Of a stretch of DNA of 64,000 nucleotides, positions 17 to 39,861 are shown one piece after another. The DNA comes from Leucoraja erinacea. Taxonomy: Eukaryota. The notes under the pieces are model-generated. The model had not been told where the DNA came from and made no database searches. It worked only from the letters and a program-made list of their open reading frames with translations. Location of the stretch: contig NC_073411.1 in assembly GCF_028641065.1 (NCBI RefSeq), positions 10,974,001 to 11,038,000 on the forward strand, read 5' to 3'. The translations under genes were made by a program, and so were the position numbers. Position 1 is the stretch's first letter. Every line of letters starts with the position of its first letter.

Positions 17-94
17 CTGAACCATCGCTGATCGCTGATGATGTTGCTAATTCCTTCAGTCAGGAGCTCCACGTTTTCAAACCGCCGGCCCTGG
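17..94 (-). CDS. INPP5F: INPP5F/Sac2-like phosphoinositide phosphatase, coding exon 11 (gene continues left of window)
   Basis: CAG acceptor, GTGAGC donor; encodes (C)QGRRFENVELLTEGISNIISDQRWF, matching Sac2 'CRGMKFENVQTLTDAI...W'; phase continues exon 10. Confidence 0.85.
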
Positions 95-1143
95 CTGCAC
101 AGAGAGAAGAGTTGATGTTGCAGGATAGAGACAGCTGCGTTATATATTTCCCCCCCACTCCCGTCAGGCAGAAGATACCGAAGCTTGAAAGCATGCACCA
201 CCAGATTCGGGAACTGCTTCTTCCCCACTGTTATCAGACCACTACACCCTCCTCCCATAAACTTGGGTGTAATCCCAATCTTCCAACCTACCTCGTTGCA
301 CACCTGGCGCTTTTTTAATATCGGCGCTTTCTCTTTAATTGTAACGCACTTATGCCGCAACACTATACTCTGTACTCGGGTATTTTTAACATAGAGTACA
401 GCACAAGAACAGGCCCTTCGGCCCACAATGTCTGTGCCGAACATGATGCCAAGACAGCACTGCTCTGCGGTAGATTTGCTGACTTACAGCACCATACACC
501 CAGGTTCGATCCTGACTAGGGGTGTTGTCTGTACGGAATTTGCACCTTCTCCCTGTGACCATGTGGGTTTCCTCTGGGTGCTCCGGTTTCCTCCCACATC
601 CCAAAGACTTGGATTTCGTTTCCTCCTGGTTAATTGGCCTCTGTAAATGTGTAGGACAGGACTAGCGGACAAGTGATCGATGGTCGGCGTGGACTCGATG
701 GGCCGAAGGGCCTGTTTCCACACCTGTATCTCTAAATGAACTATACTACAACACCCCAGGACCAAAGGGCGAGGAGTCTAGTGGGGGCAAGAGTGTTGCC
801 TAATCCCAGCCCTAGCCAGCCCTTCACTGCGTTCCCCGGGCACCCGTCACCTAAACCCAAAAGGGAATTGGTGGAATGACGTGGAGTAGGGAGTGGAGAA
901 AAATACCTTGTGGCGTGAAGAGGAGGGGGGGGGACCTCATTGAAACCCACTGTATAATGAGAGTCCTGGATAGTGAATGTGGAGAGGATGTTTCCACTAG
1001 TGGGAGAGTCTAGGACAAGTCATAGCTTCAGAATTAAAGGATGTTCCTTTAGAAAGGAGATGAGGAGGAATTTATTTAATCAGAGGGTGGTGAATCTGTG
1101 GAATTCATTGCCACGAAAGGTTGTGGAGGCCAAGTCCATGGAG

Positions 1144-1592
1144 NNNNNNNNNNNNNNNNNNNNNNNNNNNNNNNNNNNNNNNNNNNNNNNNNNNNNNNNN
1201 NNNNNNNNNNNNNNNNNNNNNNNNNNNNNNNNNNNNNNNNNNNNNNNNNNNNNNNNNNNNNNNNNNNNNNNNNNNNNNNNNNNNNNNNNNNNNNNNNNNN
1301 NNNNNNNNNNNNNNNNNNNNNNNNNNNNNNNNNNNNNNNNNNNNNNNNNNNNNNNNNNNNNNNNNNNNNNNNNNNNNNNNNNNNNNNNNNNNNNNNNNNN
1401 NNNNNNNNNNNNNNNNNNNNNNNNNNNNNNNNNNNNNNNNNNNNNNNNNNNNNNNNNNNNNNNNNNNNNNNNNNNNNNNNNNNNNNNNNNNNNNNNNNNN
1501 NNNNNNNNNNNNNNNNNNNNNNNNNNNNNNNNNNNNNNNNNNNNNNNNNNNNNNNNNNNNNNNNNNNNNNNNNNNNNNNNNNNNNNNNNNNN
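1144..1592. other. Assembly gap
   Basis: Run of N inside a CR1 fragment; another gap at 44117-44259. Confidence 0.99.
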
Positions 1593-1765
1593 GGGGGGGT
1601 GTCAGGGGTTATGGGGAGAAGGCAGGAGAATGGGGTTTGGAGGGAAAGCTCGATCAGGCATGATTGAATGGCGGAGTAGACTCGATGGGCCAAATGGCCT
1701 AATTCTGCTCCTATCACTTATGGACATGAACTTGAACCTTTGACCATGTGCTTCAGCGCTCTTAC

Positions 1766-1890
1766 CATTGATGGTGGAAATCAAAGGCCACATAGATGAG
1801 ACGCGGGTCATTGAAAATCTCAACCTGCCTCCGGTAGGCGTCGCTAATCACCTTCTCTGGCCCCGTCTGTTTCACAAGATTGATGATAAC
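1766..1890 (-). CDS. INPP5F: INPP5F-like coding exon 10
   Basis: CAG/GTAAGA boundaries; VIINLVKQTGPEKVISDAYRRQVEIFNDPRLIYVAFDFHHQ(C), with SAC-domain VIINL and FDFH motifs; 125 nt. Confidence 0.9.
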
Positions 1891-2767
1891 CTGCAGGAGG
1901 AACACAGAAACATGGAAATAAAGGTGCAGGAGGAGTAGGCCATTCGGCCCTTCGAGCCAGCACCGCCATTCAATGTGATCAGAGGCTGATCATCCAGCGC
2001 CAATCGGAGGAACCGCACTTCATATTTCGCTCATAGTTCTTTCCTTGTCCCGCCCCCTCCCCTGACATCAATCTGAAGATGAGCCTTGACCTGAAACATC
2101 GCCCATTCCTTCTCTCCATAGATGCTGCCTCAGCCGCTGAGTTACTCCAGCATTTCGTGTCTGCCTTCGATTTACCAGCATCTGCAGTTCTTTCTTAAAC
2201 ATCTAAACTGAATTCTCCATTTTCTTTTCTGTTTTTTTCTCCCCATATCCCTTGATTCCTTTAGATCTAAATCTAACTCTCTCTTGAAAACATCCAGTGT
2301 TTTATATCTATACTTTCTCTATTACTGTAACACACTTATGCCATAACACTATACTCTGTACTCGGGTATTTTTAACATAGACCGTAGAACAGTACAGCAC
2401 AAGAACAGGCCCTTCGGCTCACAATGTCCGTGCCGAACATGATGCCAAGACAACACTGCTCTGCGGTAGATTTGCCGGCTTACACCTGGGTTCGATCCTG
2501 ACTATGGGTGTTGTCTGTACGGAATTTGCCCGGTGTCTGTACGGCCTCCAGAGAATTCCACAGATTCACAACTCTCTAGGTGAAAAAGCTTTTCCTCATC
2601 TCAGTCCTAAATGCCCCCCTTATTCTTAAACTGGGGAAGGTTTTGGGGGATATGGGCCAAGTGGAGATTGGTGGGACTAGTGTAGATGGGGCATGGTTGT
2701 CTGGGGCAAGTTGGGCCAGGGAGGCTATTTAAACACCGTACGATTCTATAAATTGGAACAAACTAAC

Positions 2768-2835
2768 CCCTTTATTGTAAATCTTGAACTGTTCCATGAA
2801 GTGGCTCTGAAAAGCTTGTGTGTTCTCTGCATCGG
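2768..2835 (-). CDS. INPP5F: INPP5F-like coding exon 9
   Basis: CAG/GTTAGT boundaries; (T)DAENTQAFQSHFMEQFKIYNKG, similar to Sac2 'F.AHFEEQLNIYKKQ'; phases 1 to 0 fit neighbours. Confidence 0.85.
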
Positions 2836-2929
2836 CTGTGTGAAAAGAGGGGAAATATTTCCATTAGAAAGGAATAAATATAACTGCAGCTGCTGGAAAC
2901 CTGAAATAAAATCAGAAAGTGCTGGAGAT

Positions 2930-3320
2930 CAAAGAACCTATAGCAGAGCAAGATAGACCACTCCTGCTAAATGCAATGGGCTGACGTGTAGTACGCAACG
3001 GAGCGGAACGTGGGCCTTTTTTTCATCCATTTCAGTAACCCGACCCGACCGGACTCGCAGTGTAATCAACGTTGCGGGGAAACAGTTTGTGTTAATAAAT
3101 TATAATTCTGAAAACGAGGAGAAGATTTTTACCAAAGGACTTTTATTTTTACGAGGATGTTTCCGTAACCGGCTTCCGTCTCCGCACTAGTATCTTTGCT
3201 CCGCTACGGGATCTTTGGTGCGGAGACGGACATGGGGCCGAAAATGACCCATGGATCTGCCCATGACCGTACTGGGTCTTTTTCGTCGAGTGATCAAACT
3301 TGCTCGCTATAGGATCTATG
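2930..3320. mobile_element. Non-autonomous DNA transposon with 8-bp TSD and CA(A/T)AG termini (P-like or hAT)
   Basis: Imperfect ~33-bp TIRs CAAAGAACCTATAGCAGAGCAAG / CATAGATCCTATAGCGAGCAAG; TSD CTGGAGAT/CTGGAGAC. Confidence 0.75.
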
Positions 3321-4240
3321 CTGGAGACGACAGAGACTCTACATTCATGTCAACCATCCCCCATAGACCACCTCTCGCTGCCACGTTAGGGACCATTTAC
3401 TGCAGCCACAGTTGTCCCCTCAGCCTGCAGAACTTTGGGATATGGGAGCAAACTCAATGTGATCAGGAAGAAAATGTGCAGGTAGCGGTGGGGCGGTGCA
3501 AAAACAGGCCCTTCGGCCCATCGAGATGTCGCCTTACAGCGCCAGAGACCCTGGTTGGCTCCTGACTTTGGATGATGTCTGCACGGAGTTTGCACATTCT
3601 CCCCATGGGTATTCCCTGGGTGCTCTGGCTTCCTCCCACACTCCAAAGTCGTACGGGCGTGTAGGTTAATTGGCTTCGGTAAAGAGTGTAAATTGTCCCT
3701 AATGCTTGGGATTAAACTAATGTACGGGTGATCACAGGTCGGCGCGGACCCAGCTGGGCCCAAGGGTCTTTCTCCGCGCTGTATCTCCAAAGTCTTCAGC
3801 ACGGTGGGTCAGGATTGAACCTGGATCACTGGAGCTGAGAGGCAGCAGCTCTACCTGCTGTAACACTGCTTCTGCTTTGTGTACTTGGCCGAGCTCCTTC
3901 TGGGACCTCCTGCCAGGAATGTCAACGGAGACTGGCCTGGGATTGGGATTGGAAGCTCCTAAACGACACCCTTGCTGTGGCCCAGAATGAAAAGTCAACC
4001 TGGTCGACCCTTTATGATCCATCTTTGGCGATTTTTTAGGCGACTGCCAGCGACTAGGCCAATGGAATTCACCGAAGTCAGCACCAGCGACAACCTACCT
4101 CACCTGGCGACAACCTGCGACAACCCAAATTGACGCCACTGTTGCCGACAATGGTTCAACATGTTGAAATATTTTCGGCAGTCACATTTTGTCAACTAAA
4201 AAAAATCGCCTATGTGGGACAGGCCCTTTACTCTTGTGGA

Positions 4241-4847
4241 CAGACACAAAATGCTGGAGTAACTCAGCGGGACAGGCAGCGTCTCTGGAGAGAAGGAATA
4301 GGTGACGCTTTGGGTCGAGACCACTTCTTCAGGCTGCAGGCATACTTCAGGCAAACAGGACCAGTTCGGTTGTACGTTGCTTAGCAGGCACTGAACATTG
4401 TTGGCTAGGAGAAGGTAAAGTACAAAGCAAACAGAGATGAAATCTCCATCACACCTTACACGTCCTTGTCTCTGTATCTCCTTCTCCCCTGATTCAGTCT
4501 GAACAGAGAGTTGTGAGTCTGTGGAATTGGCTGCCTCAAAGGGCAGTGGAGGCAGGTTCACTGGAGTGAGCTAGAGACGGGTCTTAAAAATAGCGGAGTC
4601 AGGGGATATGGGGAGAAGGCAGGAACGGGGTACTGATTGGGGATGATCAGCCATGATCACATTGAATGGCGGTGCTGTCTCGAAGGGCCGAATGGCCTAC
4701 TCCTGCACCTGTTGTCTATTGAAGGGTCTTGACCCGAAACGTCGCCCATTCCTTCGCTCCAGAGACGCTGCCTGTCCCGCTGAGTTACTCCAGCATTTTG
4801 TGTCTGTCTTGGGTTTAAACCAGCATCAGCAGTTCCTTCCCGCACAC
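4241..4847. mobile_element. Long palindromic hammerhead-family element with nested CR1 tail (4504-4720)
   Basis: Inverted terminal arms; 13-bp duplication TTACTCTTGTGGA at 4228-4240 and 4848-4860. Confidence 0.7.
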
Positions 4848-4851
4848 TTAC

Positions 4852-5031
4852 TCTTGTGGAGCTGGGGAAGGGGTTTATACCGATAGCCCTCCTGGCTCCA
4901 GAACACGGGGATAGACCCTCGAATCTGGACGAACGATAAGACATCGCTCCCCCTGAAGATCAGCTGCTCGGTCTCCACGTAATTGGCCACGTTCCCGCCG
5001 CTGTCGATGCCTCTGCGTTTGTATCGCATCC
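4852..5031 (-). CDS. INPP5F: INPP5F-like coding exon 8
   Basis: GMRYKRRGIDSGGNVANYVETEQLIFRGSDVLSFVQIRGSIPVFWSQEGYRYKPLPQLHK is the hallmark SAC core; CAG/GTAAGT boundaries. Confidence 0.95.
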
Positions 5032-5722
5032 CTGTGGACCAAGGAGAAGGAAGACACTCACGCCCGGCGAACATGGTATCTCAGGCTATTGGTTTCCGTT
5101 TAGTTTAGAGACGCAGCGTGGAAACGGGCCTATCGGGGCCGCACCGAGTCCGCGCCGACCAGCGATCCCCGCACATTAACATTGCCCTACACACACGCAC
5201 ATACTAGGGACAATTTTACACCTACACGAAGCCAATTAACCTGGAGCGTGGGAGGAAACCGAAGATCTCGCGGGTCACGGGGAGAACGTACAAACTCCGT
5301 GAAGGCAAGCATCGCCCTAGACAGGATCGAACCCGGGTCTCTGGCGCTGTAAGACAGCAACTCTACCGCTGCGCCACTGCTGTGAAGCCTCTCCGAGACT
5401 CCCCACCCCCCAACACTGGATGCCTTGCTGGAGGGGTCGGCCCGGCCACATGAATCCAGAGACACAGAGAAGGCAATGCACAGTGAACCTAAACCCATGG
5501 TTGTCAAGTGGAATAGAAAATAGGTGCAGGAGTAGGCCATTCGGCCCTTCAATGTCAGCTCGTGCTTGTATCCTGCAGGATTCAAGTGAAGACCAAGGGT
5601 CATGATGTTTGAAGAAGAATCCCGAACCATTCCTGTCCTCCAGAGATGCTGTCTGACTCATTCAGTTACGCCAACTTTTTGTGTCTCTCTTTTGTTTAAA
5701 CCTGCATCTGCAGTTCCTTCCT

Positions 5723-5789
5723 GGCCCCATAGCAGAAGTGTCCACATCGCGGGGCTGGAAACTGGAAGTATCCCGAGCTAATTCTGCCA
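5723..5789 (+). ncRNA. Predicted HDV/CPEB3-like self-cleaving ribozyme (copy 1)
   Basis: P1 GGCCCC/GGGGCU, P2 GCAGAA/UUCUGC, P3 GUG/CGC, L3 UCCACAU, P1.1 CC/GG, short P4 and J4/2 GCUAA (putative catalytic C5778), in the correct nested double-pseudoknot order. Confidence 0.8.
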
Positions 5790-5916
5790 CCACCATCATC
5801 TATTGCAACAAGTGATGGCTCCTACTGATTGTCGACGGAAGGATTGCGTCCATTTCAGGATGGACGATGACAGCGAGGTCAACATTTGGAACATGGAACA
5901 TGGGCACGAAAGAAGA
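5723..5916 (+). mobile_element. Non-autonomous retroelement with ribozyme head and (GAA)n tail, copy 1
   Basis: TSD AGTTCCTTCCT (5712-5722) / AGTTCCTGCCT (5917-5927); second copy at 9715. Confidence 0.8.
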
Positions 5917-6307
5917 AGTTCCTGCCTACACAGTCACGAGTGTTTAATTGTCGTATATAAACTGAAACGGAACAATGAGATTCCCATCTTGCGGCAGGAG
6001 AACAGGTCTGTGAACACAGTGCCCAATAGATAACATAAGAGTAAAATAAACAGTAAAAAAGTTCAATAAAGAATGAATAAAAACGATATTAGTGCAGAAC
6101 CAAACTCAAGTGGTCAAGAAAGTCAAGAGTGAGAGTCAAGAGTTTTATTGTCATGTTGTAACTGTATAAAACTTTGGTTAGGCCACATTTCGAGTATTGG
6201 GAATCAGCACACAATGCTGGAGTAACTCAGCGGGACAGGCAGCATCTCTGAAGAGAAGGAATGGGTGGTTAATATAGCATTGTGTTGGAAGCGCTGGAAT
6301 CAGGCAC

Positions 6308-6643
6308 AATGGCCCTGTCCCACTGTACGAGTTCATTCCAAGAGCTCTCCTAAGTTTTAAAAAAAAAATCAAACTCGTGGTAGTACGTAGAATGAACGTA
6401 GCGGGTACGTCGGAGCTCGGGGACGTCTCTTAGTGGTTCGTAACGCTTACGGCAGGTACTCGGGAAGACTCGCTAACGGCAGGTAAGCTCGGGAAGACTG
6501 GTGAAGATTTTTCAGCATGTTGAAAAATGTCCACGAGAGCCCCGAGTACTGACGAGCGGCCATTACCGTAAATCTCCGAGTTCGAATCAGGGTAAACTCG
6601 GGGAGAGCTCTTGGAATGAACTCGTACAGTGGGACAGGGGTTT
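6308..6643. mobile_element. PIF/Harbinger-like MITE
   Basis: ~40-bp TIR GCCCTGTCCCACTGTACGAGTTCATTCCAAGAG; inverted sister copy at 58686-59016. Confidence 0.75.
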
Positions 6644-6863
6644 AAGAGACAATTGAGACAGACACTTAAATAGACAAGGATTGGAAGGATATGTCCAACA
6701 GGGGCAAATGGGGTCAGTGTGGATGGACAAGAAGGTTGGCATGGACATCTTGTGCCAAGGATCCGTTTCTGTGACTCTATCCACGAATAAAGTCCACTGA
6801 TGGCAGCACCAACAACATCAATGATTTACCGCTGGACGGCCCTCTTGTAGATTCCCCACTCAC

Positions 6864-7056
6864 CTCCTCTGTACCTGCTTCTCCTGGAGATAAGGACGAA
6901 CAGGAACTTCCCCCCCGGCGCCTTTGGCATGTCCTCGCTCACCACACATTCTTCGCAGGAGTTCCCGCCCTTGTACTTGGAGTGGCTGACGTTGATCTCC
7001 GTCACCTGCACAAAGCCTTGGATGATGGGGATGATCCACGCATCCGACATCGCGCT
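6864..7056 (-). CDS. INPP5F: INPP5F-like coding exon 7
   Basis: SAMSDAWIIPIIQGFVQV...FLFVLISRRSRYRG; SAC motifs WIIP.IQGFV and LISRRS; CAG/GTGAGT boundaries. Confidence 0.93.
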
Positions 7057-7826
7057 CTGGAGAGAAGGTCCCAAACAGAAAGGTGTCAGGGACATTTGCG
7101 TTTGGTTTATCGCCGTGCGGGGCGAGGTGTGGCGAAAAGCGTTTGTGTCGTGTGCTAACCAACCAGCGGAACGACCATGCCCGATTACAACCGAGCCATC
7201 CACAGCGTGCAGATACATGATAAAGGGAATAACACGTACTGACATTTAGTGCAAGGTAAAGTCTGGTAGCACCACCTTTCATCGCCACGCCATTGGATAT
7301 TTTTTAAAGCGGAGGCCGATACCTCTGAAACTCTCTGCCGCAGAGGGTAGTCGAGGCCAGTTCATTGGCTATATTTAAGAGGGAGTTGGATGTGGCCCTT
7401 GTGGCTAAGGGGATCAGAGGGTATGGAGAGAAGGTAGGTACGGGATACTGAGTTGGATGATCAGCCATGATCATATTGAATGGCGGTGCAGGCTCGAAGG
7501 GCCGAATGGCCTACTCCTGCACCTAATTTCTATGTTTCTATGATACGTTCTTGATTGGTAAGGGCGTCCAAGGTTACGGGGAGAAGGCAGGAGAATGATT
7601 GGGAAAGATTGGATTGGCCACGAACGAATGGTGGAGTAGACTTGATGGGACGAATGGCCTAACTCTGCTCTTACGACTTATGCCCTCAGGCAAAACAGGC
7701 AGGCCCGAAACGTTGCCTATTTCTTTCACTCCATAGATGCTGCCGCACCCGCTGAGTTTCTCCAGCATTTTTGTCTACCTAGGAAGTGATAGAAACCGTG
7801 CTGGAAGACAAAAATGCCAATCCTAC

Positions 7827-7883
7827 CTGTTTTTTGAGCAAGTCTCGAATCATGTACTTGTTCCAGAAAAATCTGTCATCGAC
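7827..7883 (-). CDS. INPP5F: INPP5F-like coding exon 6
   Basis: VDDRFFWNKYMIRDLLKKQ, near-identical to Sac2 'VDDRFFWNKYMIQDL'; CAG/GTAGGA boundaries; 57 nt, phase 0/0. Confidence 0.93.
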
Positions 7884-8034
7884 CTGAGTAAAGAGGAAAT
7901 AAGAATAAGGGGGAGGCCTTTTAGGACTGTGACAAGAAAAATCCTTCCACACCCAGAGATTTGATCCTCAGTGGAATTCTCTGCCACAGAAGGCAGTGGA
8001 GGCCAGTTCACTGGATGTTTTCAAGAGAGAGTAA

Positions 8035-8188
8035 TGCCCCTGTCCCACTTAGGAAACCTGAACGGAGACTTTGCGCCCCACCCAAGGTTTCCATGTGGTT
8101 CCCGGAGGTTTTTGTCAGTCTCCCTACCTGCTTCCACTACCTGCAACCTCCGGCAACCACCTGCAATCTTCCTAGTGGGACAGGGGCA
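8035..8188. mobile_element. PIF/Harbinger-like MITE nested in a CR1 tail
   Basis: TIR TGCCCCTGTCCCACT flanked by TAA/TTA. Confidence 0.7.
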
Positions 8189-8574
8189 TTAGATATAGCT
8201 CTTAGGGCTAATGGAATCAAGGGATGTGTGGAAAAAGCAGGAACGGGGCACTGATTTTGGATGATCTTCTTGAATGGCGGTGCTGGCTCAAAGGGCCGAA
8301 TGGCCGACTCCTGCACCTATTGTCTATTGAATGCCTGGAATGCATTGCCAGGGATGGTAGTTGAGGCAGATATGATAGTTATGTTTAAGAGACTTTTGGA
8401 TAGGCACATGGACAGGCAGGGATGTATGGATATGCTGGTAGATATCGGGCGTCAACAACGGGAGCAAAATGGAGAACAGGGGAGAGAAAATACTTTGCCT
8501 TCCATCACAGTGAGGAGGAGATTCACTGTGATGGATGTTTGTGTGAATTGAATTGTTTGAGTGTCTTACATAGA

Positions 8575-9082
8575 GACATAGAAACATAGAAATTAGGTGC
8601 AGGAGTAGGCCATTCGGCCCTTCGAACCTGCACCGCCATTCGATATGATCATGGCTGATCATCCAACTCAGTATCCTGTACCTGCCTTCTCTCCATACCC
8701 CCTGATCCCTTTAGCCACAAGGGCCACATCTAACTCCCTCTTAAATATAGCCAATGAACTGTGGCCTCAACTACCTTCTGTGGCAGAGAATTCCACAGAT
8801 TCACCACTCACTGTGTGAAAAATGATTTTCTCATCTCGGTCCTAAAAGATTTCCCCCTTATCCTTAAACTGTGACCCCTAGTTCTGGACTTCCCCAACAT
8901 CAGGAACAATCTTCCTGCATCTAGCCTGTCCAACCCCTTAAGAATTTTGTAAGTGTCTATAAGATCCCCCCTCAATCTTCTAAATTCTAGCGAGTACAAG
9001 CCGAGTCTATCCAGTCTTTCTTCATATGGAAGTCCTGCCATCCCAGGAATCAGTCTGGTAAACCTTCTCTGTACTCCCTCTA
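8575..9082 (-). mobile_element. CR1/HER1-type LINE 3' fragment
   Basis: IEGVQRRFTRLIPGM...RTRGHSLRI plus the conserved 3'UTR. Confidence 0.88.
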
Positions 9083-9347
9083 TTAAAGAGTCTTGCAGGA
9101 GTCTTGTAGGAATTGTTTTGTTTGTATTGCTATAGAAACAGAGTTTCGTTTGAGCCTCACTGAGGATTAAATGACAAAGAATAAATATTGTATTGTATTG
9201 TATATTGTAGATAAGAGATGGGTTGGCCATTGTGTTTGGTGCTGACATGGTGGGCCAAAGGTCCTGTTCCTTGTGCTGTGCTGCCCTTTGTTCCTATGCT
9301 ACATTGAAAACCACATAGCCCCCCCTACCCACCGCCCCGACCTTCAC

Positions 9348-9518
9348 CTTTGCCAGCAAACCTTCTTCGGAGTTGATGCCTTGCCGCTGCCAACGCCACT
9401 GCCGCTGGGCGCTGTTCGTGATGTCGTAGGTCTGGCTGAAGTAGAAGGCGTCAGAGTCGGTGAACAGTTTGACCAGCTCCTCCAACAGCCGCTTCTCCAG
9501 CTTCTCCTCGTCGCTGAT
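9348..9518 (-). CDS. INPP5F: INPP5F-like coding exon 5
   Basis: ISDEEKLEKRLLEELVKLFTDSDAFYFSQTYDITNSAQRQ..., matching Sac2 'EKLERRLLEELLKMFMDSESFYYSLTYDLTNSVQRQ'; donor AAG|GTGAAG (an alternative in-frame donor would end the exon at 9342). Confidence 0.88.
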
Positions 9519-9714
9519 CTGCAGGGCAGAGAGTGCGGGCGTCACCTGGTAGCGACTGCACGCGGAACGAGCCGCCACGGGGATAGCGGGGGCCACCGTG
9601 TACTAGCGCAGTGCTTAAAATATACGTAGGAAACGACACGAAACTATCAACCACAATAAACTAGATGGAGAAGCAAGGGACTGCAGATGCTGGTTTTTAA
9701 TTTAAAAAAACACA

Positions 9715-10037
9715 GGCCCCCATAGCAGAAGGTCCACCTTTAGGGGCTGGGAAACTGGAAGTATCCCAAGCTAATTCTGCTACCACCATCTACTGCGGCA
9801 AGCGATGGCTCCCACTGATTGTCGCCGGAAGCTTGCGTCCTTTTCAGGACGGTAGATAACAGCGAGGTCAACATTTGAAACATGGAAGGTCCCGAAACGT
9901 TGCCTATTTCCTTCGCTCCATAGATGCTGCTGCACCCGCTGAGTTTCTCCAGCACTTTTGTCTACCTTCGATTTTCCAGCATCTGCACAGTTCCTTCTCG
10001 AACATTTGAAACATGGAAGATGGTCGCAGAAGAAGAA
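9715..10037 (+). mobile_element. Copy 2 of the ribozyme-headed element, interrupted by a hammerhead-family insertion (9889-10000)
   Basis: Collinear with 5723-5916 and starts at the same G; nested insert flanked by the 19-bp duplication AACATTTGAAACATGGAAG (9870-9888, 10001-10019). Confidence 0.8.
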
Positions 10038-10578
10038 TAAAAAATATAAACACAAAGTGCTGGAGTAACTCAGCTTCTCTGGAGCACATGGACAAATTAG
10101 ATTTCAGGTCGGGGCTAGGAAATGGTGGGAGGGATGTGGGCCAAATGTAGGCTGACTGGACTAGCTCGTGTGGCTCCTTGCTTGGCACAGGGAAGTTGAG
10201 TCGAAGGTGGACATAAATGCTGGAGAAACTCAGCGGGTGAGGCAGCATCTATGGAGCGGAGGAATAGGCGACGTTTCGGGTCGAGGCCGTTCTTTTTTTT
10301 TTTTTTCGTGTCGAGATCCTTTTTCTTTTTTTTTTGCCTCGGGCACTGCATGTGTGTGGAGTCTGGACATTCTCCCTGTGACCACGAGGGCTTGGCCTCC
10401 CACATCCCAAAGAAACGCGGGTTTTCAGGAGTAAATGGCCCTCTGTGAAATTGAGCGTGGTGTGTAGGGAGTGGGTGCGAAATCTGGATGAGACGGAACT
10501 TGTGGCACGGTGGCGCAGCGGTAGAGTTGCTTCCTTACAGGGGCCGAAGGGCTTGTTTCCCGCACCCTACCTCTAAAC

Positions 10579-10818
10579 CAAGGGGTTCCCAACCTTTTTC
10601 ATCCCGTTTACCCCCCCTGGCAACTTTTCGACAGTAAATTTACCCCCACCCTGTTTTGTTTAGTAATTTGATTTACACTTCTACCACAATAAAGCAACCA
10701 GCAAAGGGGACATTTTAAAATATTATTTTTTAACAAACCCAGAATCAACAAATGTACCCCCTGGGTAGGCGAAATTTACCCCCCTGGGGATAAATTCACC
10801 CCAGGTTGGGAACCCTTG
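10579..10818. mobile_element. hAT-like MITE
   Basis: TIR CAAGGG(G)TTCCCAACC; 8-bp TSD CTCTAAAC/CTCTGCAC; related copy at 56540. Confidence 0.7.
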
Positions 10819-10941
10819 CTCTGCACTAAACTAAACCAAAGAACTAGTGTGAACGAGTGATCGACGGTGGACGTGGTGAGCAAAGGGACTGTATCGTCCA
10901 CTCATTCAACTAATTAAACAGAGAGGAGTAATGCACATCAC

Positions 10942-11031
10942 CTGCCGCTTAGCACCTGCATCCGCCAGCGATCTTTTCTGGGTGACGGGGACAGTTGCTT
11001 CACCTGCAAACTGCATGTGCATATGGCAAAA
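10942..11031 (-). CDS. INPP5F: INPP5F-like coding exon 4 (short, divergent)
   Basis: Polypyrimidine+CAG acceptor and CAG|GTGATG donor; 90 nt phase 0/0; FCHMHMQFAGEATVPVTQKRSLADAGAKRQ, where FCHMH aligns with Sac2 'LCKKH'. Confidence 0.65.
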
Positions 11032-11512
11032 CTGAATTGAAAAAAAAACAAAAGCATCCATCACAAAACGTTCATCCCAGATGGACCAATGTGATCATTT
11101 CACGGAGCATTTTTCGTCACAGTCGAGGCCTATAATTTTTTGTTTCCCTGGAAGAAAGAGAAATAATTCTCTGCCACAGAAGGCAGCGGAGGCCAATTCA
11201 TTGGCAGTTTTCAAGAGAGAGTAAGATTTAGCACTTTGGGCTAAAGGAATCGAGGGATATGGGGAAAAAGCAGGAACTGATTTTGGATGATCAGCCATGA
11301 TCATATTGAATGGAGGTGCTGGCTCGAAGGGCCGAATGGCTTACTCCTGCACCTATTTTTCAATGTTTCTATGTTTCTATCTGGCAATGGAGGAGGCCCA
11401 GGACAGAAAGGTCAGTGTGGGAATGGGAAGGGGAGTTGATATGGTTGTCAACCGGGAGTTCGTATAGGTCTCCGCAGACCAAATTGAGATTGTTTGTGAA
11501 TAAGACTTTTAC

Positions 11513-11649
11513 CTCCAGCTTCAGGTCCTGAGGTTCATCATTAGTCAACGGTATCACAGCCACCTTGGTGATCTTGTACATCTCATGGTCCCCGAAAACC
11601 GTGCCCACAAGGTCTTTACTTTGAATAAGGACCAGGAAACATTCTAAAT
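11513..11649 (-). CDS. INPP5F: INPP5F-like coding exon 3
   Basis: (D)LECFLVLIQSKDLVGTVFGDHEMYKITKVAVIPLTNDEPQDLKLE, matching Sac2 'GDHEVCKVTKIAVL...EPQDLELE'; TAG/GTAAAA boundaries. Confidence 0.92.
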
Positions 11650-12014
11650 CTACAAAAAATAACAATGAAAAACCTCACAGGTGCAAGTCCCTTTATGCTG
11701 AGGTTATGGCCTCTGGTCCTAGACTCGAGTTCCCACTAGAGGAACCATCCTCACCATATCCACGTTATCCAGGCCTTTCACCATTCACTTTGTTTCAATG
11801 AGGTCCCCCCTCATCCTTCTAAACTCCAGCGAGTACAGGCCCAGCGCCATCTAATGCCCATCATATGTTAACCCAGGTGAGTTGACGTCAACAACCATCT
11901 AATCTATACTAGCCCATACCAAACAACTGTCTTTTCATAGGTCTGTACAGCAACTGCATGGGAGGGGGCACGTTGATCAAACCGGTCCTGTGATTGCAAC
12001 AGATACATCCTTAC

Positions 12015-12092
12015 CTGGGTGAAACTGAAACTTCCCAACAACTCCTTCCACCAGACCGAGACAGACAGCTCTGGACAAGTCCACGTCGGAGG
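12015..12092 (-). CDS. INPP5F: INPP5F-like coding exon 2
   Basis: (A)SDVDLSRAVCLGLVEGVVGKFQFHP, matching Sac2 'ICLGLVEGVIGKIQLH'; CAG/GTAAGG boundaries. Confidence 0.92.
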
Positions 12093-12298
12093 CTGAACGC
12101 ACAAGAAAGGAGTTGTTAGTATCTGCTGAATTTGACCAATGTTGCCGTGCATTTTGCTTTAACCGTTGAAGTTAGAAAGCTCGAATCCTTCTCTGAAATT
12201 CTCAGCTTGGAATTATTACACCTAATCCTTCATATTTTCACTTTTTCACAGTGGGTGCAATGAACAAGCTGCCAGAGGAGGTAGTTGGGGCAGGGACT

Positions 12299-12614
12299 AA
12301 ATATTACAAAATGTTAAATGGTCAGCTCGACATAGACTACAAGACCTACACCAAACCCAAACCAATTAGGAGCAGACGAGGGCATTCGATCCAATTTGTG
12401 ATCCCAGCTACAAAGACAGATGTGTACAGCAATTCGTTCTTCCCCCGCACAATTAAAGCATGGAATAATCTTCACCCAACTATAGTTACCCAACCAGATG
12501 CAACTACATTTAAAGTAGCTCTTTCTTCCCAATAACCCTTTCTGGCTTAAGCCCTCCCTTCACCACCTCCAGTTTAAATTCCATTTGGAATATTTTGGAG
12601 GACCAAGAAACCAA
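12299..12614 (+). mobile_element. LINE ORF2 3' end of a different clade, nested in a CR1 tail
   Basis: YKMLNG...RRGHS...YSNSFFPRTIKAWNNL; ACCAAGA repeat tail; GACTA duplicated at the flanks. Confidence 0.65.
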
Positions 12615-12744
12615 GACTATCCCAAAGTTTAAGAAACAGATGGACAGGTACATGGATAGGACAGGTTTAGGAGGAATATAGACCAAACACGGGCAGGTGG
12701 GACTAGTGTAGCTGGGACATGTTGGCCGGTGTGGGCAAGTTGGG

Positions 12745-13435
12745 CGTGTGTGAGTTATGGTGTGTGTGTGTATGTTATGCTGTGTATGTGTGTGAGTGTT
12801 GATGTGTGTGTGTCTGTGTTAGTGTGTGTAGGTATGTGTATTGGTGTGTGTGTCTGTGTGAGNNNNNNNNNNNNNNNNNNNNNNNNNNNNNNNNNNNNNN
12901 NNNNNNNNNNNNNNNNNNNNNNNNNNNNNNNNNNNNNNNNNNNNNNNNNNNNNNNNNNNNNNNNNNNNNNNNNNNNNNNNNNNNNNNNNNNNNNNNNNNN
13001 NNNNNNNNNNNNNNNNNNNNNNNNNNNNNNNNNNNNNNNNNNNNNNNNNNNNNNNNNNNNNNNNNNNNNTGGGGTGGTGTGNNNNNNNNNNNNNNNNNNN
13101 NNNNNNNNNNNNNNNNNNNNNNNNNNNNNNNNNNNNNNNNNNNNNNNNNNNNNNNNNNNNNNNNNNNNNNNNNNNNNNNNNNNNNNNNNNNNNNNNNNNN
13201 NNNNNNNNNNNNNNNNNNNNNNNNNNNNNNNNNNNNNNNNNNNNNNNNNNNNNNNNNNNNNNNNNNNNNNNNNNNNNNNNNNNNNNGTGTGTGGGTGTGG
13301 GNNNNNNNNNNNNNNNNNNNNNNNNNNNNNNNNNNNNNNNNNNNNNNNNNNNNNNNNNNNNNNNNNNNNNNNNNNNNNNNNNNNNNNNNNNNNNNNNNNN
13401 NNNNNNNNNNNNNNNNNNNNNNNNNNNNNNNNNNN
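12745..13435. repeat. (GT)n-rich tract largely replaced by N-gaps
   Basis: Degenerate GT repeat at 12745-12862, then Ns with short GT islands; intron 1 of the INPP5F-like gene. Confidence 0.8.
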
Positions 13436-13451
13436 CTGCGCTCACACTCAC

Positions 13452-13548
13452 CTGCCTTGATCTCCATGCTGCCGTTGGAGCGACTGCAGGACAGGCAGCT
13501 GTGGGCGCCCCGCACCGTGTACTCAGCCGGTGACTGGAACAGCTCCAT
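13452..13548 (-). CDS. INPP5F: INPP5F-like coding exon 1
   Basis: ATG in AGGATGG context; MELFQSPAEYTVRGAHSCLSCSRSNGSMEIKA resembles the Sac2 N-terminus 'MELFQ...CSRRDG'; 97 nt, G|GTGAGT donor. Confidence 0.88.
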
Positions 13549-21386: not shown

Positions 21387-21890
21387 CTACCTCGCAATCC
21401 TCTCCAATTTCTCCAGCACACTCTGAATCTTGTGGACGGCCGCTTTCCGCACCTGCCGAATGTGCTCCTGGCCGTTCGTCTCCACCGAGTCCACTTCCAG
21501 GAGCTGTTTTGTCAGCAGCTCCTCCAGTAAGCGGTAAGTCTTGTCTCCCCGCTTTCCGTCAAACTGGTTCACCTCGGCCTCCAACTGCTGCACATTGTTC
21601 ATGACTTGCTCCACCTTGACTTGGCCGGGGTGCACGGGACATTCAGCCGGCTGCGTCCCCTCGTCAGTCGCAGCCCCCGCGGCCTTCTCTCGACCTCCCT
21701 TGCTCTCAGTGTGGACCTTGTACACAGTCGGGGGAGCGCTGTACTCCATCCGTGTGGCTTGCGTCGTGCCTGGCAGCTGGTCTGGGGGTTGCGGTGGGAG
21801 GTAGCCTGCGGGTTGCTGGTCATTCCCTGGGAAGTTTGCGTTGTTTAAGCAAGGCAGGGGGTCCTGATGGTTTATGGAATATGGAATATC
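21387..21890 (-). CDS. BAG4: BAG-family co-chaperone (BAG4-like), exon 5 with C-terminal BAG domain
   Basis: TAG acceptor; DIPYSINHQ...NANFPG...MEYSAPPTVY...VQQLEAEVNQFDGKRGDKTYRLLEELLTKQLLEVDSVETNGQEHIRQVRKAAVHKIQSVLEKLERIAR*; protein ends right after the BAG domain, as BAG4 does. Confidence 0.92.
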   Translation of the reverse strand, partial: DIPYSINHQDPLPCLNNANFPGNDQQPAGYLPPQPPDQLPGTTQATRMEYSAPPTVYKVHTESKGGREKAAGAATDEGTQPAECPVHPGQVKVEQVMNNVQQLEAEVNQFDGKRGDKTYRLLEELLTKQLLEVDSVETNGQEHIRQVRKAAVHKIQSVLEKLERIAR

Positions 21891-23399: not shown

Positions 23400-23717
23400 T
23401 TTCTGGTCATACACAGACGGTGGTGGGTCGACTCTCTGCCAGCCTGGCGAGGGTCCCGAAACAATGTTGCCCCCAAAGCCTGACATGGGATGAGTGAACT
23501 GCTCCGCGGATGACTGCATCGCTGGGACTCGGACCTGGGCCCAGGGGTCGTGAGTTGGCACTCCCGCTGTGGGAAGTGCAGATGCTGGCATCGAGGGTTG
23601 CCACTGTGCAGGCTGATGCTGAGGAGGATAGAGGGCCTGTTGCTGGGCAGTACCCGGGCTTCCAAAGGGGTACTGAGATGGCGTCACTGGGTAGTGAGGC
23701 TGTTGATCGTACAGCTC
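23400..23717 (-). CDS. BAG4: BAG4-like exon 4 (Pro/Gln/Tyr-rich)
   Basis: TAG/GTAAGT boundaries, 318 nt phase 0/0; ELYDQQPHYPVTPSQYPFG...HDPWA...PPPSVYDQK. Confidence 0.85.
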
Positions 23718-24519: not shown

Positions 24520-24843
24520 CCGTTGTCCTTGGGCCGGTGAATAAGCCTGATGAGTGGGGGCCTGCGGCCTCGACAGCAGCCCCTGGTTGGGCGGGCCCGT
24601 TTGCGAGTAGGCCCACTGTGCGGAGGAAGCATTCCCGTTGGACGGAGGCCTTGGCAGCCCTGCCTGTGGCGTGGGGTTTTGCTGGTGCTGAGGATGCTGG
24701 CGGTAGGGCTGCTGTTGGTGGCTCTCGCTCGTTATGGGCTCCTCCCGCGGGTGCTCAGCCGGCCCCGGGGGATACCAAGCGTTCCCCTGGACAGGCCGCG
24801 GTGACGGCGCTCGTCCAGACGAGAACACACCATTGACCAACCC
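24520..24843 (-). CDS. BAG4: BAG4-like exon 3 (Pro/Gln-rich)
   Basis: CAG/GTAGGT boundaries, 324 nt phase 0/0; GLVNGVFSSG...AWYPPG...QWAYSQ...AQGQR. Confidence 0.85.
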
Positions 24844-29899: not shown

Positions 29900-30010
29900 T
29901 TGTGGAGGCATTTGATGGTCCATCATTTGAGAATAGTTACTTGGATATGGACCAGCTTGCGGTCCAGTAGGATACCAGTAATTAGATTCAAACCCTGCGT
30001 ACGGCATTTC
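29900..30010 (-). CDS. BAG4: BAG4-like exon 2
   Basis: TAG/GTAAGT boundaries, 111 nt; EMPYAGFESNYWYPTGPQAGPYPSNY resembles human BAG4 'PYPSYNSNYW...APYPSTY' (recalled). Confidence 0.85.
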
Positions 30011-32233: not shown

Positions 32234-33602
32234 CAGTGCATTCAGAAAGTATTCAGACCCCTTCACTTTTTCCACATTTTGTTATGTTACAGCCTTATTC
32301 TAAAATGGATTATTATTTTCTTCTAATCATCAACCTACACACAAAACCCCACAATAAATTAGTGAAAACAGGCATTTCAAAATTTTTGCAAAGTAATTAA
32401 AAATAAATAACTGAAATATCACATTTACATGAGTATTCAGACCCTTTACTCATTACTTTGTTGAGGCACCTTTGGCAGCGATTACACCCTCAAGTCTTCG
32501 TGGGTATGACGCTACAAGCTTGGCACACGTGTATTTGGGTAATTTCTTCCATTCTTCTCTGCAGATCCTCTCAAGCTCTGTCCGGTTGGATGGGGAGCGT
32601 CGATGCACAGCTATTTTCAGGTCCCTCCAGAGATGTTCGATCGGGTTCAAGTCCGGGCTCTGGCTGGGCCACTTAAGGACATTCACAGGCTTGTCATGAA
32701 GCCACTCCTGCATTGCCTTGGCTGTGTGCTTAGGGTCGTTGTCCTGTTGGAAGGTGAACCTCCATCCCAGTCTGAGGTCCAGAACGCTCTGGAGTAGGTG
32801 TTCATCAAGGATCTCTCTGTACTTTACTCCGTTCATGTTTCCCTTGATCCTGACTAGTCTCCCAGTTCCTGCCGTTGAAAAACATCCCCACAGCATGGTG
32901 CTGCCACCACCATGCTTCGCCATAGGTATGGTATTGGCCAGGTGATGAGCGGTGCCTGATTTCCTCCAAACGTGACGCTTAGCATTCAGGCCAAAGAGTT
33001 CAATCTTGGTTTCATCAGACAAGATAATCATGTTTTTCATGGTCTGAGAGTCCTTTAGGTGCCTTTTGGCAAACTCCAAGCAGGCTGTCATGTGCCTTTT
33101 ACTGAGGAGTGGCTTCCGTCTGGCCACTCTACCATAAAGGCCTGATTGGTGGAGTGTTGCAGATATAGTTGTCCTTCGGGAAGGTTCTCCCATCTTCACA
33201 CAGGAACTCTGGAGCTCTGTCAGAGTGACCATCTGGTTCTTGATCACCTCCCTGACCAAGGCCCTTCTCCCCCGATTGCTCAGTTTGGCCAGGCGGCCAG
33301 CTCTATGAAGCGTCCTGGTGGTTCCAAAGTTCTGCCATTTAAGAATCACGGAGGCCACTGTGTTCTTTGGTACCTGCAATGCTGCAGAAATTGTTGTATA
33401 CCCTTCCCCAGATCTGTGTCTCGACACAATCCTGTCTCGGAGGTCTACGGACAATTTTGAGTGTCATAGCAAAGGGTCTGAATACTTATGTAAATGTGAT
33501 ATTTCAGTTATTTCTTCTTAATTACTTTGCAAAATTTTCTAAACACCTGTTTTCGCTTCTTCATACTGGGGTATTGTGTGTAGATTGATGATAAAAAAAA
33601 AT
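32234..33602 (-). mobile_element. Tc1/mariner (DD34E, IR/DR-type) DNA transposon, 5'-deleted, one TIR truncated
   Basis: TA|CAGTGCATTCAGAAAGTATTCAGACCC terminus at 32232-32260 with inner direct repeat AGTATTCAGACCC near 32432; partial inverted copy at 33469-33600. Confidence 0.92.
32453..33454 (-). pseudogene. Tc1 transposase reading frame (333 codons, open, lacking its ATG)
   Basis: Paired-like HTH, GR..KLS, SDETK, GGGS.MLWGCF, QQDNDPKH...SPDLNPIE with 34 residues between the second D and E; frame begins at TTG beside a deletion junction. Confidence 0.85.
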
Positions 33603-35319: not shown

Positions 35320-35436
35320 CTTGCGGAGCCGGGGGTCATTCCATGTGGTGGTGCCGGTGTTATGGTCGATGTAGTAGGGCCAGCCGCTGTCGGGGTCGCG
35401 CTTCACCTCCCAGCCGCGGGGCAGAACGACGGCCAT
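35320..35436 (-). CDS. BAG4: BAG gene exon 1 encoding a BAG3-type WW domain
   Basis: Strong Kozak GCCATGG; [39 protein letters not shown] has both Trp residues and the final Pro; AAG|GTGAGT donor, phase 0; lies in a CpG island. Confidence 0.9.
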
Positions 35437-35995
35437 GGCCTTCTCGCCCGCTCGCGCGCTCGCTCAGCCGCTGCTCTCCGGCCCCGCTCCAGCGCCCCGC
35501 CCCCCTCGCTGAGCGGCAGCCCCGCCGGCCAATCACGCCCCGCCTGACCAGGACAAGTCCCGCCCCCTAGCTGAGCGACGGTCCCACTGACCAATCACAC
35601 CCCGCCTGACCAGGACAAGTCCCGCCCCCTAGCTGAGCGACGGTCCCACTGACCAATCACACCGCACCGGGCCAGGACAGGTCCCGACCCTCATTGATTG
35701 ACGGCTCCGTCGGCCAATCACACAGCCCCTGTCCAGGGTTAGCCCCACCCCTCCCCCTCCCCCCACTGACTGACGGCCGGCCGTGGTAGCCAATCACACA
35801 GCGCCTGACCGGGACAAGTCCCACCCCCTCGCTGATCGATGGCTCCTTCGACCAATCACACCCCGCCTGGCCCGGACAAGTCCCACCTCCGGTGACTGAC
35901 GGCCCCGCCGGCCAATCACACACAGTCCCGCCCCGCTCCATCCGGCTCACCGGCCAGATTCAGCGGGGCATCGGCCAGAGCGGCACGCCCACTTC
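35437..35995 (-). promoter_or_regulatory. CpG-island promoter of the BAG gene built from ~62-bp CCAAT + GC-box repeats
   Basis: CCAAT at 35529, 35591, 35653, 35714, 35790, 35852 and 35912, with interleaved CCCCGCC/CCCGCCCC boxes; CpG-rich. Confidence 0.75.
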
Positions 35996-36008: not shown

Positions 36009-37057
36009 AGACACACTCGCTGACACACTAGAGTTGACACACTCGCTGACACACTAGAGTTGACACACTCGCTGACACACTAGAGTTGACACACTCGCTG
36101 ACACACTAGAGTTGACACACTCGCTGACACACTAGAGTTGACACACTCGCTGACACACTAGAGTTGACACACCCACTAACACTAGAGTTGACACACTCGA
36201 TGACACACTAGAGTTGACACACTAGAGTTGACACACCCACTAACACACTAGAGTTGACACACTCGCTGACACACTAGAGTTGACACGCTCGCTGACACAC
36301 TAGAGTTGACACACCCACTAACACTAGAGTTGACACACTCGATGACACACTAGAGTTGACACACCCACTGACACACTAGAGTTCAGATTCAATTTTAATT
36401 TAATTTGACACACTAGAGTTGACACACTCACTGACACACTCAGGACAGTGGCACACTAGAGTTGACACACTCGCTGACACACTAGAGTTGACACCCACTA
36501 ACACACTAGAGTTGACACACTCACTGACACACTCAGGACAGTGGCACACTAGAGTTGACACACTAGAGTTGACACACCCACTAACACACTAGTGTTGACA
36601 CACGCAGGGCAGTGACACGCCAAAGTTGACACACCCACTAACACACTAGAGTTGACACACTCACTGACACGCAGGACAGTGACACACTAGAGTTGACACA
36701 CTCACTGACACACTCAGGACAGTGGCACACTAGAGTTGACACACCCACTAACACACTAGCGTTGACACACTGACACACGCAGGGCAGTGGCACACTAGAG
36801 TTGACACACCCACTAACACACTAGAGTTGACACACTCACTGACACACGCAAGACAGTGACGCACTAGAGTTGACATACTCACTGACACACTCAGGACAGT
36901 GACACACTAGAGTTGACACCCACTAACACACTAGAGTTGACACACGCAGGGCAGTGGCACACTAGAGTTGACACACTCACTGACACACTAGAGCTGACAC
37001 ACTCACTGACACCGCCAGGACAGTGACACACTCGCTGACACACTATAGTTGACACAC
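36009..37057. repeat. Minisatellite, 26-bp unit ACACACTCGCTGACACACTAGAGTTG with GACACAC sub-units
   Basis: Perfect units at the left end, degenerating and rearranging rightwards. Confidence 0.95.
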
Positions 37058-39861
37058 TTTGATTTCCCCCCCCTTCCCCCCCCCCCCCTTCCCTTCACTT
37101 CCCCCCAACCCTAGTCATCCCACTAGTTCCACTGTTCACATCCTTGTGTTGTTAGCACATCTTACCCAGCCAACAACAGGCTGTTATGGACTCCACCCTT
37201 CCTGAGGTTGCCGCCTCTGTTTTTGTCCTGGCCTTCTCTATCGTCAGTCTGAAGCGTTCCGACCCAAAATGTCAGCTATTCTTAATCCCCAGAGATACTC
37301 CTAATCCCCAGAGTTACTCCAACAGTTTGTGTCTATCAAACTAAGAACTAAGCTTGGATATCAATGGTACTGCGTTGTGACTTCCTGTCTGAACCCATTT
37401 AACTAAACGTGGAAACAGGCCCACCAAGTCCACACTGACCAACAATCCCCGCACACTAACACCACGATCCCACACATGCTAGGGTCAATTTACAATTTTA
37501 TCTAAGCCAATTAGCCTACAAGCCTGTACGTCTTTGGAGTGTGGGAGGAAACCGGGGCACCCGGAGCAGGTCTCGGGGAGAACGTACAAACTCCGTACAG
37601 ACAGCACCCGTAATCAGGATCAAACCCGGGTCTCTGGCGTGGTAAGGCAGCAACTCTATCGTTGCACCACCATGCCACCCATAACTATCAATAAATATTA
37701 AAATATTGAACATCGGTGTACACAGAACAAAAGCTTCTTGAGAGTCAAATGTTTTAAATAACTCCTTTAATTTCTTTTTTAAAGTATTCAGCTGGTGTAC
37801 AGAGAAATGGCTTTTTCTGTTAAACTTATTTTCTTTTATACAATTCTTTGATATAGGTAAATCTAATTCAAAAGGCTTCTCTTCACAACAACGATTAAAA
37901 AAAACCCAGGAGGCATTGGTAAAATTCTAAAAAGCTGTGCCAGGGAGATTTCACTGATTATCAGCATTCTACAATTTAATATCTAATACAGCCATTGCTT
38001 TATACCTGATTAGCAGTCACAGTGCCTAAACATTCCTGGTGATGATTGATAAAAGTTCTGTGCAAGTGCTGAAGCATTTCTTACAGTAAGATGCTATAAG
38101 ATTAATACAATTCCGTACCAGCCTGTACTCCATCTACCACCTATTCATTCTCCACTAACTCGCACAGTGCAGTACTCTTCCCCTCTCACTCCCACCATGA
38201 GTCCTTCACCTGCGCACACTCAGAGCGCTCACCATTACAAGTCTTAATGAGGCTCCTCAGTGCACAGTGCAATTGTGTAGCTGCAAGCCAGCCATTTGGG
38301 TCCCGTTTTGAACATGGATATCCTGGTATTGGACAGGGCCATTAACGAAAATCAGCTTTATGCTGAAAATTCCAGGTGCTGGCCCCCAATCACTTATTTC
38401 AAGCTGCTGGGCAAGTGGAATGTGTGAATTCCAAGCTTACCAACAACTCTGCAGCCACAATTTGAAGGTGTGTAAAGAAGCCGAGATGGATTTGTTGTAT
38501 TATTGCTATAAGTGAACTAGAACATCTCTTTCAATTGTGCATAATTAACACAGTCTTTCCTTTTCTCCAATCAAGCCTTGCAATTGAACCTTAAACTTCA
38601 GGTTTCATGTTCATAAGTCATAGGAGCAGAATTAAGCCATTCGGCCCATCGAGTCTACTCCACTATTCAATCATGGCTGATCTATCTCTCCCTCCTAGCC
38701 CCATTCTCCTGCCTTCTCCCCATAACTCTTGACACCCGTACTAATGAAAAATCTATCGACCTTTGCCTTAAAAATATGCAATGACGGCCTCCACTGGCCT
38801 CTGTGGCAATGAATTCCACAGATTCACCACTTTCAACTCCTCAGAGGTCAAAATGGCCCAGAGGTTTTTAAAGAGCTTGTTTAACCTGTGTGCCATACTG
38901 GTGCGTATGTAGGGGCTAAGTTCAATGGACGTAAAAGCATGATGCAAAGACACATTGAGGAAGCTTGGTACACACTTCCCTTGTCCCCTTGCCTTTATGG
39001 AGCAAGGATTCAGCAGGCATACTGTGTCGGGAGGAACAGCAGATGCTGGTTTAAACCAAAGACAGGCACAAAAGGCTGCAGTAAGCCAGAGGGTCAGGCA
39101 GCATCTCTGGGAAAAGGAATAGGTGACATTTCAGGTCTGAAGAAGGATCTCCACCCAAAACATCAACTATTCCTTTTCCCAGGAGATGCTACCTGACCCG
39201 CTAAGTTACTCCAGCCTGTTGTGTCTGTCTAAGGATTCCAGGACATTCCTTGTGGGACTAATGGGATAAGGAATTGGCTGTACTTGACCCAAGACACAGG
39301 TTGAAGGGGATCATTGTTTTTTTTGTCATTTCATACCGTTACAAGTTTTTAATTCACCAAGGCCATCCACTGTAACCCATGTGCTTATTTATCATGTTTA
39401 AGAAGGAACTGCAGATGCTGGAAAATCGAAAGTAGACAAAAGTGCTGGAGAAACTCAGCGGGTGCGGCAGCATCTGTGTAGCGAAGGAAATAATTCGGGC
39501 CGAAACATTGCCTATTTCCTTCGCTCCATAGATGCTGCCTTTGGCATGTGAGAGGAAACCGGATCACCCAGAGGAAACCCACGTGGTCACAGGGAGAATG
39601 CGCAAACTCCACACAGACTCCACCTGAGGTCAAGATCGAACCCGGGTCTCTGGTGCTACACGGCAGTAGTTCTACCCGCTGCACCACTCTACCGTCTTAT
39701 CCCTGACATGTACCATTTATCGCAGCAGTTTGTGTCCCCTTACCATAGTGAAGGATACAGGCAGCAGATCTTTGCTGCGAGCCCAGATGTCAGAAGGTGA
39801 AGTCACAAACACCCCTGACAACAGGTGAAGCTGGGGCCTTGAACTAGTCCTCACTGGAGTA

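Follow-up and report, generated by a model that had tools for sequence, protein, structure and literature searches.

Does the vertebrate gene INPP5F, which encodes Sac2 and is to our knowledge treated as single-copy in vertebrates, have a second member, and if so, how old is it? A 64,000-nucleotide stretch of the genome of the skate Leucoraja erinacea (NC_073411.1, positions 10,974,001 to 11,038,000; hereafter the window) raises this question, as it carries a Sac2-type gene next to a BAG4-like gene. We take the human arrangement to be BAG3-INPP5F-MCMBP-SEC23IP on 10q26, and BAG4-DDHD2 with ANK1 nearby and no INPP5F on 8p11. The second INPP5F/Sac2 copy is here named INPP5F-B (B), and the INPP5F orthologues are referred to as canonical (A); the annotation of RefSeq already labels B proteins as 'SAC2-like'. 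Our analyses indicate that INPP5F-B is probably an ohnolog of the second round of genome duplication (2R), namely the beta copy of a BAG-INPP5F pair, common to elasmobranchs and the coelacanth.

The part of INPP5F-B lying in the window consists of 11 exons on the minus strand (Table 1), which together measure 1274 nt and splice into 424 stop-free codons, with AG at 10 of 10 acceptors and GT at 11 of 11 donors. Not one of 100,000 random segment sets matching these exon lengths was open. The 424 codons cover the N-terminus of Sac2 and the greater part of its SAC domain; the gene is incomplete in the window, the exon with the CX5R motif and all later exons lying to the left of base 1. Exons 3, 5, 7, 8 and 10, five of the six exons scanned, matched Pfam Syja_N (exon 1 gave no match), and orthologous B models matched it at E values of about 1e-76 to 1e-88. 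The 11-exon model, longer than the one in RefSeq, is supported by the SAC2-like model of the skate Amblyraja, to which the spliced product is 91.8% identical over 426 columns. Canonical INPP5F proteins that align along the entire spliced product are 45-52% identical to it, apart from a single case at 40%. Truncated canonical INPP5F models end at positions matching at least three of its introns. A retrocopy was also considered and rejected, as 11 introns start in the window, some of them at canonical positions. A preliminary description, made from the sequence alone, had reported 11 exons of 1274 nt with GT-AG sites in one open frame, encoding a Sac2-type N-terminus and a SAC domain, a protein by eye roughly half identical to INPP5F, and a position directly downstream of a BAG4-like gene on the same strand; all of this was reproduced.

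Further properties of the protein can be read in its orthologues. The catalytic C, D and R residues are kept in all 12 B models of the tree described below, Cetorhinus having Ala for the final Thr of CX5R(T/S). The hSac2 domain exceeds the Pfam cut-off in 8 of the 12 B models scanned and is partial in Cetorhinus; it is absent from the models of Amblyraja, Hemitrygon and Hypanus (P0002, P0003 and P0463), which reflects either a loss in batoids or model error. The predicted fold of Rhinoraja B (mean pLDDT 71.7, from an input alignment that contained canonical rows too) matches Sac1 (E 1.8e-29) and the crystal structure of human hSac2, 4xuu (E 1.1e-10). Judged by these sequence features, INPP5F-B likely encodes an active 4-phosphatase of phosphatidylinositol 4-phosphate (PI(4)P). 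From what is known of the family, and with the motif read in orthologues only, the Cys of CX5R would attack the 4-phosphate of PI(4)P as in canonical Sac2.

Phylogenetic analysis under the LG+C20+F+G4 model was based on 745 columns and 41 rows, comprising the window protein, 12 B models, 19 canonical proteins out of more than 150, two cyclostome and seven invertebrate sequences; SACM1L/SAC1, FIG4 and SYNJ are absent from it as named rows. The vertebrate Sac2 clade including B was separated from the seven invertebrate Sac2 rows with support of 100/100. Within it, the window protein, 11 elasmobranch models and the SAC2-like protein of Latimeria formed a B clade (100/99) apart from the canonical clade (97/98), and the two were united (96/88) with hagfish and lamprey outside. 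The reading of the gene as the canonical INPP5F orthologue is rejected, since its protein falls outside the canonical clade and the gene adjoins BAG4, not BAG3.

The approximately unbiased (AU) test rejected a duplication confined to sharks (p-AU 0.0016) as well as one confined to the coelacanth (p-AU 0.0007). The duplication that produced INPP5F-B predates the split between sharks and bony fishes. It likely took place after the divergence of cyclostomes, a date that rests on the best tree and on the assignment of the two chromosomes as alpha and beta. Thirteen residues are exclusive to Latimeria B and elasmobranch B. The 13 control rows yielded 0-3 apiece, with controls that have close relatives among the rows biased towards low counts. 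This speaks against the two B lineages having been joined by long-branch attraction. Measured from the A/B node, branches reach 0.15-0.23 in canonical proteins, 0.84 in Latimeria B and 1.05-1.38 in elasmobranch B, so that B has evolved about 5-7 times faster. This fits the raised rate reported for beta segments (PMC10115646).

Records of B were obtained from 14 elasmobranch species and from the coelacanth Latimeria. Eight species have both B and canonical INPP5F: Mobula hypostoma, Hemitrygon, Hypanus, both Scyliorhinus, Heterodontus, Cetorhinus and Latimeria. In 9 of the 10 species with records of both BAG4 and B, the two lie on same-sized contigs, equal listed size serving as a proxy for the same contig; the exception is S. 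torazame, where they lie on short scaffolds that differ. In Mustelus a 65.5 kb contig carries both genes, under consecutive accessions. Canonical INPP5F and B are on different contigs in six of the seven chromosome-scale species.

In the skate, the supplement of PMC10115646 places an Inpp5f-2 bait at 20.13 Mb of Leri_15C and Bag3 at 20.17 Mb, 40 kb apart, and the same work has Bag4 at 11.0 Mb of Leri_35C and treats LER15 and LER35 as the 1-alpha and 1-beta copies of linkage group I/Q. A 2R ohnolog is favoured because Inpp5f-2 and Bag3 are on the alpha chromosome 15 and Bag4 is on the beta chromosome 35. The suffix of Inpp5f-2 suggests that a first copy was also named by the authors' pipeline; 'Inpp5f-1' gave no match in the text of that paper that was searched. 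The canonical INPP5F protein of Leucoraja was not among our protein-search matches. In the supplement of PMC8040251, ANK1 and ANK3, on chicken chromosomes 22 and 6, are listed for one paralogon as its quadruplicates C and D. We propose that an ancestral BAG-INPP5F tandem gave rise to BAG3-INPP5F (skate chromosome 15, alpha) and to BAG4-INPP5F-B (chromosome 35, beta), and that ray-finned fishes and tetrapods have likely lost INPP5F-B.

These results bear on the origin put forward in the preliminary description. Its view that the gene is too divergent to be the true INPP5F orthologue agrees with the tree, the Inpp5f-2 and Bag3 pair on Leri_15C is the separate canonical copy beside BAG3 that it had envisaged, and its proposal of an 8p11-side duplicate gains support from the BAG4 and ANK1 neighbours and from Bag4 on LER35. 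The retention in cartilaginous fish that it suggested is borne out by the 14 elasmobranch species, with the correction that the range is wider and takes in the coelacanth. As to still other lineages, the best 120 of 3,552 matches of a B-profile search consisted of the 12 seeds and, after them, 108 rows either unnamed or with the name SAC2/INPP5F, and no further B member was found among 407 scored proteins, where a slowly evolving B could hide among canonical matches. By this profile scoring Latimeria B came out as canonical, so B may have been missed in lungfish, bichir, gar, chimaera and tetrapods.

Elasmobranch B proteins also differ from other Sac2 proteins in their C-terminal part and at the catalytic site. 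All 19 canonical rows carry a C-x-T/S-x-I/F motif at the terminus, as do one of the two cyclostome rows, six of the seven invertebrate rows and Latimeria B; none of the 11 elasmobranch B models, several of them truncated, has it. A helix predicted after hSac2 (residues 729-753 of Rhinoraja B) is strongly hydrophobic and amphipathic in all eight elasmobranch B models that reach it, with KD19 values of 0.92-1.95 and moments of 0.37-0.58; outside elasmobranch B this region has KD19 values of -0.26 (Latimeria B), up to 0.39 (the 19 canonical rows) and up to 0.91 (outgroups). The second Cys of the P-loop is invariant outside B (28 of 28 rows). Six of the 12 B rows (6 of 11 from elasmobranchs) have Ser or Asn at this position, which takes at least four changes on the tree. 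In synaptojanin this Cys has been proposed, from a model, to form a disulfide with the catalytic Cys (PMC10924134). Loss of the tail, the helix and loss of the Cys point to altered targeting and control of elasmobranch B, as predicted from sequence. The helix is a predicted membrane anchor that would hold the enzyme on a membrane, as opposed to a cytosolic enzyme with transient endosomal recruitment. A tentative extension, which we hold to be possible and rather doubtful, is that elasmobranch B would be a membrane-anchored, redox-altered PI(4)P phosphatase, a type of Sac protein absent from mammals. The course of events implied, and equally speculative, is that a helix was gained after hSac2, the tail motif shed and the second P-loop Cys, the proposed partner in an inactivating disulfide, lost repeatedly, with coelacanth B as the unremodelled intermediate.

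Several observations weigh against the account given so far. The window is placed on LER35 by way of BAG4, and the coelacanth gene is assigned to B from sequence. The branches of both B lineages are long, and the canonical profile gives Latimeria B a higher score than the elasmobranch-B profile does. The catalytic exon, hSac2 and the helix were read in orthologues, outside the skate window, and the C-termini of B were taken from automatic gene models. The grouping of canonical proteins with cyclostomes survives the AU test (p-AU 0.279), and in a reduced tree three elasmobranch B rows, without Latimeria B, fell outside canonical plus cyclostomes (81/79). FastTree likewise put B outside the cyclostomes, in conflict with the preferred mixture-model tree. 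Such topologies would be expected if B were older, a pan-vertebrate duplicate from the first round (1R) whose cyclostome copy was lost or unsampled. We consider this origin unlikely, given that the mixture-model tree of all rows unites A and B, that Latimeria B alone in a reduced tree is sister to canonical (90/89), that LER15 and LER35 are listed as alpha and beta of one 1R copy (PMC10115646), and that fast beta genes are expected to be drawn towards the root. A local event on the jawed-vertebrate stem that copied the BAG-INPP5F segment independently of genome doubling would agree with the lamniform sharks, in which B, BAG4 and canonical INPP5F of Cetorhinus are on same-sized contigs, as are BAG4 and canonical INPP5F of Carcharodon (records P0127, P0014, P0449, P0461 and P0227), and with the linked genes that could be read, which are BAG, INPP5F and ANK1 only. 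These shared contigs possibly result from the sister chromosomes, alpha and beta, having fused in lamniforms. With the two blocks on different contigs in six of the seven species, the chromosomes being a published alpha/beta pair, and ANK1 and ANK3 belonging to one paralogon (PMC8040251), a local event appears very improbable.

Irrespective of its origin, INPP5F-B might be decaying in the skate, being truncated or barely expressed. The RefSeq model of L. erinacea (P0001) is short, with 266 aa covering exons 5-9 only, from intron 4 to intron 9, within which it terminates. The donor of exon 9, GTTAGT, is unusual; the Leucoraja RefSeq model reads through it and stops, and the Amblyraja model splices there. 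To these signs may be added the lack of hSac2 in the Amblyraja model, fast evolution in skates (76.5% identity to Rhinoraja B, whereas the BAG4 proteins fall in one 90% cluster) and the fact that 0 of 14 elasmobranch B records come from assembled-read (Logan) sources. RNA from four runs (about 5, 6, 6 and 25 in 100 of each) gave about 1,000 joints, and no INPP5F-B junction was among the 15 that were listed, with the signal over 1700-12150 swamped by repeats and low depth in the least repetitive exon-bearing bins of that interval, an outcome that we treat as no result. On the other hand, the 424 codons are free of stops and frameshifts, and relatives have models with full SAC and hSac2. The window and Amblyraja proteins differ at 2 of the 131 columns that are deeply conserved and at 27 of the remaining 273 (p 0.0016); comparisons with Rhinoraja, Mobula and Stegostoma are skewed in the same way. 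From this distribution of changes, INPP5F-B is evidently under purifying selection, and we regard decay as quite improbable.

The 2R ohnolog interpretation can be set beside known systems. Canonical Sac2 is a cytosolic PI(4)P 4-phosphatase whose activity is abolished by C458S, and its endosomal localisation needs the catalytic domain together with hSac2 or the C-terminal part (PMC4395482). Like INPP5F/Sac2 (PMC4395482, PMC4395491), B has in its orthologues a SAC domain, CX5R with an Asp equivalent to D460, and hSac2, and it shares the intron positions noted above. It differs in being about half identical, faster evolving and adjacent to BAG4 instead of BAG3, and, in elasmobranchs, in the absence of the tail motif (11 of 11), the hydrophobic helix and the replaced P-loop Cys. 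SAC1/SACM1L is a membrane-anchored PI(4)P phosphatase. B has the SAC fold in common with it, and the predicted helix of B would tie that domain to the membrane; unlike SAC1, B has hSac2, a place within the Sac2 family and one candidate helix after hSac2, so any likeness in anchoring would be convergent.

Previously, Pdx2 was recognized as a differentially retained 2R ohnolog (PMC2944030), and 17 ohnologs were reported to be kept in chondrichthyans and coelacanth (PMC10115646). INPP5F-B is a further case of this Pdx2-like retention, with the same phyletic pattern and, as a beta-segment gene, a raised rate; unlike ohnologs of the Pdx2 type it is a trafficking enzyme and not a developmental regulator. 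The pattern being well known, the surprise is moderate. No description of a second INPP5F was found in the literature, where genome-wide supplementary lists may contain it; the main texts of PMC13450315 and PMC11979771 and the part of the PMC8040251 supplement available do not mention INPP5F. The canonical gene figures in reviews on Parkinson's disease and endocytic recycling. A second copy maintained under apparent purifying selection for more than 400 million years amounts to a natural experiment that can tell the required parts of Sac2 from the rest: in B the core has been kept, the tail and second Cys appear dispensable, and a helix seems to be new. The locus also documents BAG3-INPP5F as an ancestral tandem.

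The gene upstream of INPP5F-B on the same strand has five exons, with its stop 7.8 kb before the INPP5F-B ATG, and its splice product is identical to P0121, named 'BAG3-like' in RefSeq. A search with the last exon returned 30 proteins, of which 24 were BAG4, one BAG3, one the 'BAG3-like' protein itself, one unspecific and three unnamed. We read the gene as BAG4 because its single BAG domain ends the protein at the very C-terminus and the IPV motif was not found in it; the N-terminal WW domain, unmentioned in the preliminary description, may lie behind the RefSeq name. Seven of 12 chondrichthyan BAG4 records, chimaera included, have a WW domain, versus 0 of 17 other BAG4-type records, several of the records being partial. 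BAG4 of bony vertebrates is not known to carry this domain. The distribution suggests that the ancestor of BAG3 and BAG4 carried a WW domain, that BAG4 likely began with one, that its WW exon was likely lost in bony vertebrates, and that 'BAG3-like' is a mislabel of the skate gene. A WW-bearing BAG4 was not found described in the literature.

Table 1. Exons of INPP5F-B and its neighbours in the window (columns: feature, position, strand, evidence)
INPP5F-B exon 1, ATG at 13548	13452-13548	-	splice; matches Amblyraja model P0002
INPP5F-B exon 2	12015-12092	-	splice + protein alignment
INPP5F-B exon 3, SAC (Syja_N) domain begins	11513-11649	-	splice + Pfam
INPP5F-B exon 4, linker of low conservation	10942-11031	-	splice + protein alignment
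INPP5F-B exon 5, SAC domain	9348-9518	-	splice + Pfam
INPP5F-B exon 6	7827-7883	-	splice + protein alignment
INPP5F-B exon 7, SAC domain	6864-7056	-	splice + Pfam
INPP5F-B exon 8, best-conserved SAC exon; 100% to Leucoraja SAC2-like P0001	4852-5031	-	splice + Pfam + protein search
INPP5F-B exon 9, donor GTTAGT	2768-2835	-	splice + protein alignment
INPP5F-B exon 10, SAC domain	1766-1890	-	splice + Pfam
INPP5F-B exon 11, last in window; catalytic exon expected beyond base 1	17-94	-	splice + alignment
BAG4 exon 1, WW domain (E 3.5e-14)	35320-35436	-	domain scan + splice
BAG4 internal exons	29900-30010, 24520-24843, 23400-23717	-	alignment + splice
BAG4 last exon, BAG domain ending at C-terminus	21387-21890	-	domain scan + protein search + splice
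ANK1 C-terminal exon, approximate bounds; ankyrin-1 residues 1799-1826, E 2e-7	57251-57334	-	protein match
First exon of small muscle ankyrin-1 isoform, high-scoring candidate	63011-63229	-	lead

Further upstream lies the 3' end of ANK1, whose last coding exon is likely near 45777-45802, and ANK1, BAG4 and INPP5F-B appear to be directly adjacent on one strand. No gene was recognised at 37100-44300, between the likely 3' end of ANK1 and the start of BAG4. Just upstream of the BAG4 start, two 62-bp tandem arrays occupy 35496-35923; all their units contain a CCAAT box together with GC-rich elements, and the arrays are followed by a 14/26-bp satellite at 36010-37058. Intron 1 of BAG4 contains an element with matching inverted ends (32234-33570), which resembles a Tc1/mariner transposon.

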